Of a stretch of DNA of 7,228 nt, positions 1-7,228 are shown piece after piece. The DNA comes from Acinetobacter geminorum (GTDB lineage Bacteria > Pseudomonadota > Gammaproteobacteria > Pseudomonadales > Moraxellaceae). The position numbers were made by a program, and so were the translations under genes. Position 1 is the stretch's first letter. The number at the start of each line of letters is the position of its first letter. Below the pieces are notes generated by a model. That model searched no databases. It had not been told where the DNA came from and saw only the letters and a list, made by a program, of their open reading frames with translations. The stretch covers positions 178,713-185,940 of the forward strand of contig NZ_JABELE010000007.1 in NCBI RefSeq assembly GCF_013009345.1, written 5' to 3'.

Positions 1-534
1 TGGACTGTCGGTCTTTTACGTTTTGAATCACGTTTAAAAAAACGTTGGCTTGAACGTAATGGAATTCCTACCAATCTCTTTGATTTAATTAAGTTTCAAC
101 GTTCCAACCCAAATTTACTTCAAACACTCTGGACTAAAGCTACTCATAGCATTTTTGATGCCTTACGAGGTCAAACTATGAAATTAACAGACGATACTAG
201 TGTTCTTGAAGCTATCCAACGATCTGATGTTGTTTTAACCAAATCTGGTAAAGCTTCCCCAACTAAAGTACGTAATTTATTTGCCATGTATTGTCTTATC
301 CGCGAAAAGGGATTTGATGAAGTTAAAACGACTTATGGCAAGTCTCAATTTCACAATCTAATAGCCCAGTTATGTGCTGTACAAGGTCTTAATAAAGGTA
401 TCTTGCAGAACTTACATACAGGCAATGCCAACAATATTATTCCGTTTATTAAGTTCGTAGACATAGATTTCAATCAACAATTGCCAGATTGGTACGAAGA
501 GCCAGTTTCGCAGTTTAACTACAAAATCGCATAG
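1..534 (+). CDS. Replication initiation protein of element A (gpII/RstA-like), C-terminal fragment; the 5' end lies outside the window
   Basis: Frame 1 is open from base 1 (WTVGLLRFESRLKKRWLERNGIPTNLFDLIKFQRSNPNLL...). It aligns by eye with residues ~235-411 of the 411-aa ORF at 1450-2685 (GLLRFE, GIPTNLF, NIIPF.K.V.I.F..Q.PD...EPVS.FN). Same context as in element B, followed by a small gene. Confidence 0.75.
   Translation, partial: WTVGLLRFESRLKKRWLERNGIPTNLFDLIKFQRSNPNLLQTLWTKATHSIFDALRGQTMKLTDDTSVLEAIQRSDVVLTKSGKASPTKVRNLFAMYCLIREKGFDEVKTTYGKSQFHNLIAQLCAVQGLNKGILQNLHTGNANNIIPFIKFVDIDFNQQLPDWYEEPVSQFNYKIA
178..534 (+). CDS. Possible nested in-frame pX-like product (C-terminal 118 aa of element A Rep)
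   Basis: In-frame ATG at 178, preceded by GAGG (167-170) and a 7-nt spacer. The same arrangement is conserved at the homologous position of the element B rep gene (2323). Confidence 0.35.
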   Translation: MKLTDDTSVLEAIQRSDVVLTKSGKASPTKVRNLFAMYCLIREKGFDEVKTTYGKSQFHNLIAQLCAVQGLNKGILQNLHTGNANNIIPFIKFVDIDFNQQLPDWYEEPVSQFNYKIA

Positions 535-542
535 GTGAGCAA

Positions 543-866
543 ATGAACAATTCACAACATCCAATCATGACAGTTACAGGCATTCGTAAAGCTGCTGGAG
601 ACTTTCAAGACGAAAAAGGCAAAACAATCGAGTTTTCAAACACGGTTGTAACTGTGCTGCAAGAATATTCAGATCGTGAGAAAGAACAAGGCGCAATCGG
701 TTTTAAATCGACTGACTACAAGATTAAAGGCGCTCAGTTCTTCAATGATTATCTTCATCAGGAATTACCAAACAAAGCTAAGTTGATCTTTGATTGGGAT
801 TTCACAGGCAAACAACCAAAGGCTGTGTTAGTAGCTTTGGATTTTGATGGTGTGGAAGCAGCGTAA
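543..866 (+). CDS. Small protein in the gpV/RstB (ssDNA-binding) position of element A; function inferred from position only
   Basis: 107-aa ORF. ATG lies 5 nt after AGGTGA (533-538), which overlaps the rep stop codon. It directly follows rep, as gene V / rstB do in filamentous phages. No sequence motif recognised. Confidence 0.45.
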   Translation: MNNSQHPIMTVTGIRKAAGDFQDEKGKTIEFSNTVVTVLQEYSDREKEQGAIGFKSTDYKIKGAQFFNDYLHQELPNKAKLIFDWDFTGKQPKAVLVALDFDGVEAA

Positions 867-901
867 TAAAGCTATACGAATCAAAGTGTTAATAATAAAA
901 C

Positions 902-936
902 ACTTCGTATAATGTGATGTCCAGATTATGTTACTA
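902..936 (+). other. dif-like site 1: XerC-like arm ACTTCGTATAA, 13-nt spacer TGTGATGTCCAGA, XerD-like arm TTATGTTACTA
   Basis: The arms resemble the E. coli dif arms (GGTGCGCATAA / TTATGTTAAAT) and the TTCGTATAA / TTATGTTAA arms recalled for Acinetobacter dif/pdif sites. The spacer is 13 nt rather than 6. Confidence 0.6.
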
Positions 937-982
937 AGCCCCAGTGAGAAGATTACACAGTCTCACGGGGCTTTTTAACATC
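904..982. repeat. Left copy of a 79-bp (or longer) perfect direct repeat, the array junction / attP right half
   Basis: 904-982 matches 7150-7228 at every base (offset 6246). The repeat is cut by the window end, so its true length is unknown. Identity begins inside the XerC-like arm TTCGTATAA. Confidence 0.95.
939..976 (+). terminator. Rho-independent terminator-like hairpin, which is also the apex of the attP hairpin
   Basis: CCCC(A)GTGAGA (939-949) pairs with TCTCACGGGG (961-970), with an 11-nt loop, followed by CTTTTT (971-976). The same structure follows orf74 at 7185-7222. Confidence 0.6.
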
Positions 983-1001
983 AATCTGCATTATGCGAAC
1001 T
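973..1001 (-). other. dif-like site 2, inverted: AGTTCGCATAA, TGCAGAT, TGATGTTAAAA (read on the minus strand)
   Basis: The reverse complement of 973-1001 gives an 11-nt XerC-like arm, a 7-nt centre and an 11-nt XerD-like arm (9/11 to TTATGTTAAAT). It is in inverted orientation relative to site 1. Confidence 0.6.
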
Positions 1002-1006
1002 AGATG

Positions 1007-1095
1007 CAGCGTCGGGGCGCGACCGTCGGCGAGGGCTCGCAGCCGATCGGCGTTGACACGATGCTGGGAGAGTTAGAGCAGGGGCATCCGGATGC
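1007..1095. other. GC-rich structured intergenic island; candidate replication origin, packaging signal or minus-strand origin
   Basis: By hand count, 1007-1060 is about 41/54 G+C in an otherwise AT-rich window. It contains the perfect palindromes GCCGATCGGC (1042-1051) and GCATCCGGATGC (1084-1095), and a stem CCGTCGGC (1023-1030) / CCGATCGG (1043-1050, mispaired at the central T). It occupies the position of ig-1 in CTXphi. Confidence 0.35.
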
Positions 1096-5390: not shown

Positions 5391-6670
5391 TCTATTTAAT
5401 TGTGGGTCAACCACGTTCGGGGAAATCTCAATATGCTGTTAAATTGGCTTTTGATATTGATGAAGCTAATAAGAAAATTCAGAAAAAAGTTGATGACGGC
5501 AAAGAGCTAACAGAAAAAGAATTAATGGCTTTGCAGGATGGAACTATTGTTCCTGCGATACGTCCTGTTTATTCAGATATTGAAGAACATGCCAAGCGAA
5601 ATGATTTCATTCAATTAGCACCAGCCGACTGGCGTGATGTACCTGATGGCTCAATTATTTTTTATGACGAGGTGCATTTTAGAGATGAGTATTTAGATCA
5701 AAGCAAATACATGTCTCAAAACCCTATGATTAAAGAGTTATCGACTCATGGTCATAGAAACATTGATATTTACTTAATGACTCAGGATCCACGAAGATTG
5801 GAGAAATCTATACGTGCTCTTGTGTTTAAAATGTTCCTAGTTAAACGTCCAGCTAACTTACCGCCATTCGCAAATGTCTATACTTTTGATCGTTGGCTTG
5901 GCGATCCGTGGGCAGCATCAAAGAATAAAGATAATGTTCATGATGAACAGTTATTTCATTATAAAAAGAAATATCAAGATGCTTATAAATCCGCATCGGC
6001 TCATACATCAATGGTTTTCAAGTTGCAGCGCAAGTTTATTGTGGCCATTGTTTCAATTCTTGTCATGATTGGTTTGTCTGTTTTCTTATTCAAAATCAGT
6101 GGAATGGGTAAGATTGTTAAAGACGCTACTAACGTATCCGGAATGACGGAAAAAACAAAAGTAGATGATAAAAAAATTATGGCTTCAGCAAATGGAAATA
6201 CCACTTCAGCTAAGCCTGGAGAGACAACACAAACACAGTTAGATTGCCGAAAAGCTGTCAATGTAGAAAAGCCCGAATGTGTAGAATGGTTTAATAATCT
6301 TGATAAAAATAAAGGTTCATTTACTACGGCTGGTGATGGCCAAATTAATGTTTCATATAACCCTAATCAACCTTATGAAACTGCGGAAATACAGAAAGCA
6401 GCTAGCTATCAAGTTACTGCGCGACCAGTATTTAGCGGTTGTACTAAAGTAGGTAATAAATATCAGGGCTACACCCAACAGGGAACTAAGCTTAATGTGT
6501 CTAAATCGGACTGTGAACGTTTAATTAAGAATAATGACAGGCCGTTTAATTACTTTGTTGAGCAACGACCAGAGCAACCGCAACCACAGCAACCTATACA
6601 GAACCCTAAACAATTCGATGATGAGTTTGTTGCTAAGTATCAAGCTGCAAAGGCTGAGGGGTTAATTTGA
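5387..6670 (+). CDS. zot: Zot-family / pI-like phage assembly ATPase
   Basis: It has an N-terminal Walker A (GQPRSGKS), a Walker B-like IIFYDEVH, and a central transmembrane helix (FIVAIVSILVMIGLSVFLF). A Cys-containing C-terminal domain with a Pro/Gln-rich tail follows. The start overlaps the upstream stop (ATGA at 5387-5390). Confidence 0.8.
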   Translation: MIYLIVGQPRSGKSQYAVKLAFDIDEANKKIQKKVDDGKELTEKELMALQDGTIVPAIRPVYSDIEEHAKRNDFIQLAPADWRDVPDGSIIFYDEVHFRDEYLDQSKYMSQNPMIKELSTHGHRNIDIYLMTQDPRRLEKSIRALVFKMFLVKRPANLPPFANVYTFDRWLGDPWAASKNKDNVHDEQLFHYKKKYQDAYKSASAHTSMVFKLQRKFIVAIVSILVMIGLSVFLFKISGMGKIVKDATNVSGMTEKTKVDDKKIMASANGNTTSAKPGETTQTQLDCRKAVNVEKPECVEWFNNLDKNKGSFTTAGDGQINVSYNPNQPYETAEIQKAASYQVTARPVFSGCTKVGNKYQGYTQQGTKLNVSKSDCERLIKNNDRPFNYFVEQRPEQPQPQQPIQNPKQFDDEFVAKYQAAKAEGLI

Positions 6671-6730
6671 AATCTTTTTCTCTGATTACTAAAAACCGTC
6701 TATAAGATGTGACGTAGAATTAGCAAAGAA

Positions 6731-6814
6731 GTGTCTTCAGGGGAATTGAGACACATCGCGTAAACATTGGTTTTTTTATGAATTTTGAGTGTCTCAAGGC
6801 GTAGTCTAGACACT
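6731..6814. repeat. Two related hairpins built from four GTGTCT/AGACAC half-sites in the post-zot non-coding region
   Basis: Hairpin 1 is GTGTCT (6731-6736) / AGACAC (6749-6754). Hairpin 2 is AGTGTCT (6788-6794) / AGACACT (6808-6814). In a common orientation the flanks are similar (CGA[T/A]GTGTCT, GTGTCTCAA). Confidence 0.5.
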
Positions 6815-6921
6815 TCGATTATTGGCATAATGTTACAAGTGCTCGCTCTACTGCAGCTTAAGCCGGGCATCAAAAAAGTGAACAAAATCAACACTTGTGA
6901 TTTTTTAAGGATTGGCAAAAT

Positions 6922-7146
6922 ATGACACTAAAACCTTATGATATTTACAACCAGACGGCTGGTCTTATTGATTTTTCATTGGGTGAATTAACTGATATTT
7001 ACACTTCTATTTTATGGTCAGGTTGTGCTAACGATAATCAGATATTGAAGAAAATAGAAACCAAATACACCTTTTGCTCTACCTGTAGCAACTTAGTTTT
7101 AAAAGAACAATTTGATGATCATTTAGACAAATGTTTAGTGGACTGA
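6922..7146 (+). CDS. 74-aa cargo protein with a C-terminal CxxC-x11-H-x3-C metal-binding motif; function unknown
   Basis: The ATG at 6922 is preceded by AAGGA (6908-6912). The C-terminus reads FCSTCSNLVLKEQFDDHLDKC. It occupies the slot between zot and attP, where CTXphi carries ctxAB. The stop lies 1 nt before the XerC-like arm. Confidence 0.55.
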   Translation: MTLKPYDIYNQTAGLIDFSLGELTDIYTSILWSGCANDNQILKKIETKYTFCSTCSNLVLKEQFDDHLDKCLVD

Positions 7147-7147
7147 T

Positions 7148-7182
7148 AGTTCGTATAATGTGATGTCCAGATTATGTTACTA
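7148..7182 (+). other. dif-like site 1, right-junction copy: AGTTCGTATAA, 13-nt spacer, TTATGTTACTA
   Basis: Identical to 902-936 except at position 7149 (G versus C at 903). The G restores a base pair with C1000 in the folded attP, which suggests this is element B's native arm. Confidence 0.6.
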
Positions 7183-7228
7183 AGCCCCAGTGAGAAGATT
7201 ACACAGTCTCACGGGGCTTTTTAACATC
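7150..7228. repeat. Right copy of the 79-bp (or longer) direct repeat; start of the next array unit
   Basis: Base-for-base identical to 904-982 and truncated by the window end. Confidence 0.95.

Follow-up and report, generated by a model that had tools for sequence, protein, structure and literature searches.

The 7,228-nucleotide (nt) stretch of Acinetobacter geminorum DNA analyzed here (contig NZ_JABELE010000007.1, positions 178,713 to 185,940 of the forward strand; hereafter the window) very probably comes from a stack in which two different filamentous prophages of Acinetobacter, designated A and B, stand head to tail at sites recognized by XerC and XerD, the host enzymes that unlink chromosomes. 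From left to right it contains the replication module of A, a hybrid site combining the left half of an A site (S1) with the attachment region (attP) of B, a complete copy of B, and B's native attP, cut by the window end. With the same high confidence, it can be described as the left-hand portion of a filamentous prophage array whose members exploit Xer (integrative mobile elements exploiting Xer recombination, IMEX) in an Acinetobacter dif site or its plasmid equivalent, pdif; the window itself contains internal junctions only, with no host-flank junction. It is one ordinary instance of a recurrent architecture. At the sequence level, this reading is supported by the anatomy of the sites, by a predicted fold and its covariation, by the positions of the junctions and by the recurrence of the architecture in related loci (numbered here with the prefix L).

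The window carries one long direct repeat. Positions 904-982 and 7150-7228 are identical over 79 of 79 nt and lie 6,246 nt apart; the second-longest match in a repeat search of the window was only 37 nt at 76%. The nucleotides preceding the two copies are CAC (901-903) and TAG (7147-7149), and the left flanks are unrelated: positions 1-903 hold the C-terminus of a replication protein (Rep) and the gene for a 107-amino-acid (aa) protein, and positions 6922-7146 hold the open reading frame (ORF) orf74. The original prediction, made from the letters of the window, had noted the identity, the unrelated flanks and the AC versus AG immediately before the copies, and was exact on all three. The second copy runs to the window's final base. 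The repeat corresponds to a phage attachment region, consisting of attP1 (XerC arm, 13-nt spacer, XerD arm), a hairpin, and an inverted attP2 with a 7-nt spacer. Element B, one genome length between two presumed XerC cleavage points, is comparable in size to the circular relatives pAb-D10a-a_4 (6,619 nt) and pANC7912.4 (6,373 nt). The elements on which the argument depends are:

880-912, + strand: S1L, left half of the dif-mimic inside A, with the XerC arm ACTTCGTATAA at its right end (902-912); the same sequence flanks the S1 and dif junctions in L001-L004.
902-936, + strand: hybrid attP1, with the XerC arm of A (902-912), then the 13-nt spacer TGTGATGTCCAGA (913-925) and XerD arm TTATGTTACTA (926-936) of B; layout as in CTXphi attP1 (PMC3089051).
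938-971, + strand: distal hairpin (GCCCCAGTGAGA...TCTCACGGGGC) followed by a T run, from fold prediction.
973-1001, - strand: attP2, inverted, reading AGTTCGCATAA TGCAGAT TGATGTTAAAA (XerC arm, 7-nt center, XerD arm), from fold and covariation.
913-7158, + strand: element B, 6,246 nt, from the span between the two presumed cleavage points and the repeat spacing.
3043-3070, + strand: S1(B), internal dif-mimic at the boundary of the replication and structural modules, with XerC arm ATGACGTATAA, center TGTATA (that of the host dif) and altered XerD arm ATATGTTAAAA.
7148-7228, + strand: B native attP, with XerC arm AGTTCGTATAA (7148-7158), spacer (7159-7171), XerD arm (7172-7182), hairpin (7184-7217) and the first 10 nt of attP2 (7219-7228), from identity to 904-982.

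Two inverted dif-like sites with non-canonical centers, such as the window has (13 nt in attP1, 7 nt in attP2), are the mark of a CTX-type IMEX. In CTXphi, attP1 is AGTGCGTATTA TGTGGCGCGGCA TTATGTTGAGG, with a 12-nt center, and attP2 is AATGCGTATTA TACGCCA TTATGTTACGG, with a 7-nt center; the two are inverted and pair in the (+) strand, cleavage is by XerC only, and integration is irreversible (PMC3089051, PMC4246890). The Acinetobacter attP resembles that of CTXphi in its two inverted dif-like sites with one long (12-13 nt) and one 7-nt center, in their predicted pairing in the (+) strand, and in its location, with the last core gene on one side and, on the other, a small divergent gene that precedes rep; it differs in the distance between the arms, which is about 35 nt (the hairpin) versus about 90 nt in CTXphi. 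The core-end/attP configuration of B's native site recurs unchanged in L016, L017, L021 and two circular episomes, L024 and L025.

As single-stranded DNA (ssDNA), positions 896-1010 are predicted to fold with a free energy of -25.4 kcal/mol (z -6.2), and none of 200 shuffled sequences did as well. In the predicted fold, 904-914 pair with 989-999 (the XerC arms plus two central bases), 915-921 form a 7-nt bulge, and 922-933 pair with 976-988 (the remainder of the center and the XerD arms), with the hairpin on top. A scan for the inverted arm, with the central bases left free, recovered more than 100 further loci from IMG/VR. Among these relatives the attP1 spacer measures 8-13 nt, and changes at its 3' end are matched by changes in the attP2 center (AGA/TCT, AAGA/TCTT, GCA/TGC). 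When 48 distinct attP variants were aligned, 93.4% of cells were paired and six base pairs changed on both sides, including an arm pair (C-G/T-A) and two unconstrained flanking columns; the covariation score was 0.119, versus 0.067 in shuffles (0 of 500 as high) and at most 0.067 in slid controls. attP1 and attP2 are predicted on this basis to pair in ssDNA as a forked hairpin presenting a dif-like duplex. The distal hairpin varies in sequence and length among relatives (38-105 nt) and is always a hairpin; with its T run, it may double as a terminator. An Rfam scan of both window strands returned only a spurious snoRNA match (E 0.77), and thus no known RNA family explains either the hairpin or the G+C-rich island that follows attP2.

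The two sides of the hybrid site have different relatives. Positions 1-915, through TTCGTATAATGT, are 99.9-100% identical at the DNA level to a different Acinetobacter phage (L001-L004), and A-type identity stops at 915. The B replication module (904-3091) is 97-99.9% identical to modules in L005-L014 that accompany unrelated structural genes, and the B structural module has its closest relatives in L263 (94-96% identical), where the replication module is unrelated, and in L196 and L262 (about 90%). Breakpoints fall at about 3043-3070, that is at S1, and at 904/7159. These comparisons characterize the phages as mosaics of a replication module (RS) and a structural “core.” Megablast against phage and plasmid collections found partial relatives only, and a search of viral, metagenome and genome collections with the 30-nt attP1 pattern found no copy of the window.

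Element A is represented by two genes:

1-534, + strand: A Rep (gpII/RstA-type), C-terminal 177 aa, cut by the window start; Pfam G2P_X_C, E 1.5e-11; PHROG 702 (replication protein), E 1e-43.
543-866, + strand: A 107-aa post-rep protein, possibly an ssDNA-binding protein of the oligonucleotide-binding (OB) fold; PHROG 4994 (function unassigned).

The Rep fragment is 45% identical to B Rep over 176 aa. The final gene of A stops at 866, 37 nt ahead of the repeat, and A ends where it does because its own S1 site lies there; the original prediction overlooked both this S1 and the inverted attP2. Rep-only units, with a small divergent gene, rep, a post-rep gene and their own attP and no structural genes, exist in L011, in L018 and twice in L262. 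An A-type module also flanks a full phage in L001; the window opens inside A's rep, and the upstream part of A lies outside it. No additional gene such as the antirepressor gene rstC lies between the post-rep gene (543-866) and the junction (902) in A, which therefore resembles RS1 in arrangement and not in gene content. An exact copy of A's 107-aa protein is named from A. pittii.

Arrays with host junctions supply the grammar by which the window can be read. Their right ends have the form xxTTCGTATAA TGTATA TTATGTTAAAT followed by host DNA; this dif 26-mer occurs in more than 120 gamma- and betaproteobacterial genomes and is a generic dif. An unoccupied reference is available in A. lactucae (L055), which has a dif without a phage junction and flanks matching both the left and the right array junctions. 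Every left host junction seen consists of host flank, XerC arm and attP1 spacer, never S1, and most right junctions (in the chromosomal arrays whose records include the ends) consist of the S1 left half, TGTATA, TTATGTTAAAT and host flank. Crossover at the border of the XerC arm and center is found at dif junctions in L001, L005, L007, L011, L020, L262-L266 and plasmid pC9_1. These junctions are those of integration at the host dif, with the crossover at this border and a functional dif regenerated on one side.

Two records illustrate the pattern. Near the midpoint of chromosome CP059547.1 (3.81 Mb), the order is host, RS(x), RS(x), RS(y)-S1-core(y)-attP-RS(y), dif, host, where the internal boundaries are S1-left/attP hybrids and the core shares 89-91% identity with that of B. 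In the closed plasmid pC9_1, two full tandem copies of a related phage occupy the pdif site GATTTCGTATAA TAGAGA TTATGTTAAAT: the left junction reads GATTTCGTATAA/TTTGACCAAGCG-TTATGTTAC, the internal junction AAAGTTCGCATAA-TTTGACCAAGCG, and the right junction AAAGTTCGCATAA/TAGAGA-TTATGTTAAAT. The switch falls exactly at the XerC arm/center border on both sides, and the partners share the XerC arm only. This position matches the circular junction that had been predicted for B, joining 7158 to 913, and, together with the CTXphi-type attP1/hairpin/attP2 anatomy of the repeat, supports the XerC-side recombination proposed with it; in the hybrid attP1 of the window, the crossover would lie between 912 and 913. 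Arrays in a plasmid pdif site indicate that the phages use plasmid Xer sites as well as chromosomal dif. Plasmid-pdif arrays were seen in L026/L260 (pC9_1, NZ_CP113443.1, about 53,000-66,200), L009, L010 and L019, with a RelE/helix-turn-helix toxin-antitoxin module adjoining the pdif site; they include B-type replication modules 97% identical to that of the window.

S1 lies just after the post-rep gene in every phage, and its 94 sites in the related loci all have the form ATAA-TGTATA-ATAT, the XerD arm beginning ATAT versus TTAT in dif. A few internal S1 sites do begin the XerD arm with TTAT (L264 at 9796, L244 at 978), making them full dif-like sites inside an array. attP1, by comparison, sits between the last core gene and the divergent small gene, as XerC arm, 8-13 nt spacer and XerD arm TTATGTTA. 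An S1-type left flank, in which the end of a post-rep gene is joined to attP, is present at 23 of the 140 attP1 sites, CP059547.1 among them; with the near-identity of 1-915 to another phage, this recurrence supports the original view of the window as a heterologous filamentous prophage array of RS1/CTX-like form. Attachment sites of heterologous types occur together in 11 of 18 multi-attP contigs. A dif-type right half was found at 25 sites, most of them with an S1-type left flank; these, with the 23 S1-left/attP hybrids, indicate that S1 has recombined at the XerC border many times. It may do so as duplex DNA, and reversibly, in the manner of VGJphi. The idea that S1 x dif recombination always removes the terminal structural module when the centers match was rejected: L259 retains its core beside a TGTATA dif. 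On the same question pC9_1, with a TAGAGA pdif center and its core retained, is only suggestive.

From these observations we infer dependence on XerCD, integration as a single strand, the position of the replication origin, and a rolling-circle route of phage release. The (+) ssDNA genome of B would fold attP1 (of the 902-936 type) onto the inverted attP2 (973-1001), forming a dif-like duplex with a bulged center. Host XerC and XerD would bind this folded site, and XerC would exchange one strand with a functional dif regenerated at the right end of A; replication would then complete the insertion, leaving the hybrid site at 902-936 and a rebuilt dif at the right end of B. The next element would insert at the rebuilt dif, and the array would grow rightwards. 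In the window, B is followed at 7148-7228 by its native attP, and therefore another unit beginning with a B-type attP should follow. That such a unit is physically present is probable, and by precedent it would most probably be a second B replication module, then TGTATA-TTATGTTAAAT and host DNA. The original prediction of a further unit gains likelihood from the continuation core-attP-RS-dif in 10 of 11 core-containing chromosomal arrays (L001, L005, L007, L020, M02, L262-L266), and rests in the window itself on 79 nt at a contig end. The exception, L259, ends in core-XerC arm/dif; in this chromosomal array (positions 286 and 6924) the two XerC arms have differing left flanks, and the unit upstream is therefore probably from another phage.

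A core-attP-RS segment would be deleted or inserted if S1 recombined with the terminal dif, and deletion would give rise to rep-only, RS1-like units. This would explain both the rep-only units (L011; in tandem in L018 and L262) and the RS-core-RS form, which is the dominant form of array. It could also excise a complete genome, and the statement carried over from CTXphi that the prophage cannot excise is consequently not established here: the internal S1 (3043-3070) could allow Xer-mediated excision. A Rep-specific origin most probably lies inside the replication module, because replication modules are swapped between unrelated cores; two replication modules flanking one structural module would then provide two origins for CTXphi-style rolling-circle release of the B genome. 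Taken together, these steps would amount to a two-site Xer system, in which a folded ssDNA attP serves for entry and S1 lets host XerCD cut a self-replicating rep module apart from the structural module, yielding RS1-like satellites, excision or insertion of whole phages beside resident rep modules, and shuffling of modules, with pdif as well as dif as targets. We offer this larger scheme tentatively, as somewhat more apt to need revision than to stand in full.

Several points weigh against the reading of the window as an array that continues beyond B, or against parts of the proposed mechanism. The second copy of the repeat breaks off with the window, which thus does not show the further unit. 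An assembly graph built with k = 79 would leave a terminal overlap of 79 nt whether B is in tandem or also present as a free circle. L259 retains its terminal structural module beside a chromosomal dif, so that the S1 x dif step is not obligatory. The search pattern for attP relatives fixed most arm columns, and the covariation evidence comes from the free columns only. Both strands fold equally well, and folding alone does not indicate which strand is used. If the origin lay in a conserved non-coding element at 6672-6830 instead of in the replication module, an RS-core-RS array would be left with one origin. The action of Acinetobacter XerCD on these sites is, finally, predicted from their sequences.

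The alternative that survives best, and which we nevertheless regard as unlikely, is that the A-B junction is real and the 7150-7228 copy arose when the assembler closed a cycle, B being a single integrated copy accompanied by abundant circular replicative form, or the graph being a tail attached to a loop, with no further unit in the same molecule. The copy does end exactly where the window ends, and its length of 79 is often used as a k-mer size; attP or replication-module boundaries also terminate other short-read contigs from this group of phages (L196/L267, L215, L227, L003, L004), free circular relatives exist, and the GenBank record of phage M02, described below, is labeled circular despite being a linear array cut. 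Against this, core-attP-replication module adjacency is chromosomal in 10 of 11 core-bearing arrays, several of them on records of 0.2-4 Mb, and a single integrated B would show TTCGTATAA-TGTATA-TTATGTTAAAT after orf74, as in L259 and pC9_1, which the window does not.

Less probable again, to the point of being doubtful, is a role for attP2 that is incidental to integration, as a terminator plus conserved origin sequence, with the double-stranded replicative form integrating at attP1 or S1 in the manner of VGJphi. S1 is a good double-stranded dif mimic that has clearly recombined with dif, the equal folding of both strands is compatible with such a route, and the distal hairpin with its T run is terminator-like. 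The compensatory changes, on the other hand, tie the attP1 spacer and arm to attP2 (AGA/TCT to GCA/TGC in the spacer, C-G to T-A in the arm, and the flanking columns); a normal Xer site cannot accommodate a spacer of 8-13 nt, as has been shown for CTXphi attP1 (PMC4246890); and the left host junctions are all at attP1, none at S1.

Homologous recombination or Rep-mediated events between related phages, rather than Xer, could be invoked for the junctions, since the phages share the short conserved TTCGTATAATGT there and their modules are mosaic, yet this seems very improbable: only 9-15 nt are shared at crossovers, the pC9_1 partners have just the XerC arm in common and switch at the arm/center border on both sides, and the same border is used with the host dif in many independent arrays. 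The notion of a single circular phage genome whose ends overlap, or of a simple duplication, as a direct repeat at a contig 3' end might suggest, is refuted by the sequence, as the original prediction had already held: copy 1 lies 903 nt inside, 1-903 and 6247-7149 are unrelated, and 1-915 come from a different phage.

The arrays read as Xer-exploiting stacks invite comparison with several known systems. Those of CTXphi and RS1 at Vibrio cholerae dif1 are alike in having no phage recombinase, an XerC-side crossover, a right end at which a functional dif is restored, and a mixture of full phages and rep-only units. The Acinetobacter phages differ in their host, in the lack of toxin genes and of rstC, in carrying the additional internal dif-mimic S1 between replication and structural modules, and in integrating also in plasmid pdif sites; unlike RS1, their rep-only units end at S1 and carry no extra gene of their own. 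No internal S1-like site is known in YpfPhi of Yersinia pestis or CUS-1Phi of E. coli. These two phages, likened here by description only, are listed as CTX-type, with dif integration and tandem arrays (PMC4246890, PMC11209303), and are named with RS1 as CTX-type relatives (PMC4246890). S1 may be compared with the double-stranded attP of VGJphi, since it is a lone dif-like duplex site whose XerC arm is good and whose XerD arm is altered; recombination of a VGJphi-type site with dif can excise the intervening DNA, as in excision of the VGJphi-CTXphi hybrid (PMC4246890). The two kinds of site are on separate, cooperating phages in Vibrio, whereas in Acinetobacter both are in one genome, and S1 has a 6-nt center equal to that of the host dif, as opposed to the 7-nt center of VGJphi.

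Within Acinetobacter, the filamentous “Af” prophages of A. baumannii (Narancic et al., 2024; a 2025 study of Egyptian isolates, PMC12285184) belong to the same phage group. These papers define no att sites, do not use the term “attP” and bring in dif solely as an analogy from other phages; they describe neither the folded attP nor S1, and neither hybrid junctions nor integration at pdif. The pdif (XerC/D) modules of Acinetobacter plasmids similarly use host XerCD sites as exchange points (PMC11705084), but in those modules inverted double-stranded sites flank cargo genes, whereas the unit described here is a replicating ssDNA phage with a folded attP. A search of full-text literature for IMEX, pdif, attP1-attP2 or forked hairpin together with Acinetobacter found no description, within a coverage that excluded Renda et al. 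(2016) on the A. baylyi phage CRAphi, which may describe att sites. Tandem Acinetobacter filamentous prophages and the CTX-type IMEX array as a kind are already published; new, relative to the searchable literature, are the folded attP and internal dif-mimic in one genome and the use of plasmid pdif sites.

What is known to date of single-strand integration in the style of CTXphi comes from work in Vibrio, YpfPhi and CUS-1Phi being listed as relatives. The more than 100 Acinetobacter loci with the same folded attP, the natural covariation that supports the fold, and the clean junctions seen both in large chromosome records and in one closed plasmid make the mechanism testable in a priority pathogen in which XerCD and pdif are already studied. 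S1 offers an explanation for two published, hitherto unexplained features of Acinetobacter filamentous prophages, namely that they are “flanked by replication modules” and that different prophages are stacked and mosaic. If correct, a two-site Xer system would link phage traffic to the Xer-based gene exchange of Acinetobacter resistance plasmids. There is also a practical side: short-read contigs of such arrays are easily misread as circular phage genomes or episomes, and one GenBank “complete circular” record contains dif and host flank. In this record (L023; OQ693633.1, “Acinetobacter phage M02, complete genome,” labeled circular), positions 1-125 are identical to 5816-5940, and the end comprises a true dif (5927) and about 290 nt resembling the L007 host flank; it is a linear cut of an RS-S1-core-attP-RS-dif array and not a circle.

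The gene set of B is that of a full inovirus by Pfam and PHROG matches: a divergent 67-aa gene, Rep, a post-rep gene, Coat_B, a TspB/pIII-like protein, DUF2523 and Zot. With a gpII/RstA-type Rep, Coat_B, a Zot/pI ATPase, a pVI-like protein and a 6,246-nt unit, B belongs to the Inoviridae. No recombinase or integrase was found in B among the 10 ORFs of at least 59 aa, orf74 and the 29-aa ORF (Pfam for all; PHROGs for the 10). The remaining features of B are:

1004-1146, no strand: G+C-rich intergenic stretch (G+C fraction 0.52 versus about 0.37 elsewhere), with hairpins at 1007-1066, 1101-1127 and 1130-1143.
1147-1350, - strand: divergent 67-aa gene; PHROG 5219 (function unassigned).
1354-1449, no strand: operator-like direct and inverted repeats of GTGACAAAT and divergent promoter-like sites between the 67-aa gene and rep, from a repeat search (D7, I2, I10) and promoter-like matches.
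1450-2685, + strand: B Rep, 411 aa; Pfam Phage_CRI, E 1.3e-43, and G2P_X_C, E 2.9e-12.
2696-3016, + strand: B 106-aa post-rep protein, possibly OB-fold and ssDNA-binding; PHROG 15713; AlphaFold2 pLDDT 72.9, with weak matches to PriB and SSB.
3097-3186, + strand: 29-aa zinc-ribbon-like ORF that closely follows S1; sub-cut-off Pfam match to Zn_ribbon_8, E 1e-4; also readable in episome L024.
3248-3427, + strand: 59-aa small structural-module protein; PHROG 9110; exact protein in several chromosomal arrays.
3428-3664, + strand: major coat protein; Pfam Phage_Coat_B, E 1.6e-9.
3769-5103, + strand: pIII/TspB-like adsorption protein, 444 aa; PHROG 7568, E 1e-114; Neisseria_TspB C-terminal match, E 5e-4.
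5106-5390, + strand: pVI-like minor coat protein (DUF2523); Pfam DUF2523, E 1.4e-12.
5387-6670, + strand: Zot/pI-type assembly ATPase; Pfam Zot, E 2e-11; PHROG 197, E 2e-58.
6672-6830, no strand: conserved non-coding element with nested inverted repeats GAAGTGTCT...AGACACTTC and TTGAGACAC...GTGTCTCAA, from sequence comparison.
6922-7146, + strand: orf74, the last B gene, with C-terminal CxxC...HxxxC, from the ORF list; zinc-finger matches sub-threshold only.

In the G+C-rich stretch, an imperfect long hairpin (1007-1066; fold z -2.96) directly follows attP2, and a terminator-like site lies at 1130-1143; relatives carry different G+C-rich sequence at the same position. The stretch could be the replication origin or the minus-strand primer site. 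A small minus-strand gene upstream of rep is found in all related arrays, and the 67-aa gene of B occupies the position of the CTXphi repressor gene rstR, a repressor role being suggested by position alone. The exact B Rep protein is present in many Acinetobacter arrays.

The post-rep proteins of A and B have no detectable similarity to each other, and a sequence search of the PDB gave no match for either. Their AlphaFold models (pLDDT 82.2 for the 107-aa protein of A) have Foldseek matches at E of at least 0.015 and TM scores of at most 0.47, mostly to OB-fold SSB, PriB and Ff gene V proteins; the model of A's protein weakly matches all three. The label “ssb” given to these genes originally is thus plausible, by position and by the weak resemblance of the modeled fold, and finds no counterpart in the PDB sequence search.

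The 6672-6830 element is 79-83% conserved across phages with unrelated Rep and coat modules and is missing in rep-only units, and it may serve as a packaging signal. Its fold is no better than that of shuffled sequences (z -0.81), though the centroid fold retains the helices. No identical protein is on record for orf74, for Zot or for the pIII-like protein, by exact-protein look-up. Small Cys/His-rich ORFs recur at module edges (the 29-aa ORF, the tail of orf74, and L007 at about 9310-9460), with Pfam matches that are all below cut-off. L007 has a further peculiarity at 4122-5344, where a 314-aa truncated Rep runs straight into DUF2523 and Zot and the match to window positions 1-140 breaks off at 140, which suggests that an internal deletion fused rep to the structural module.

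In genomes of the A. baumannii group, the dif region holding the arrays has a fimbrial usher operon on one side (L001, L005, L007, L012, L262-L266). On the other side of the array, several of these strains have a resistance-nodulation-division (RND) efflux operon and an adjacent two-component regulator, which we take to resemble adeABC and adeRS. Altered AdeABC expression has been described in phage-infected strains (Narancic et al.).

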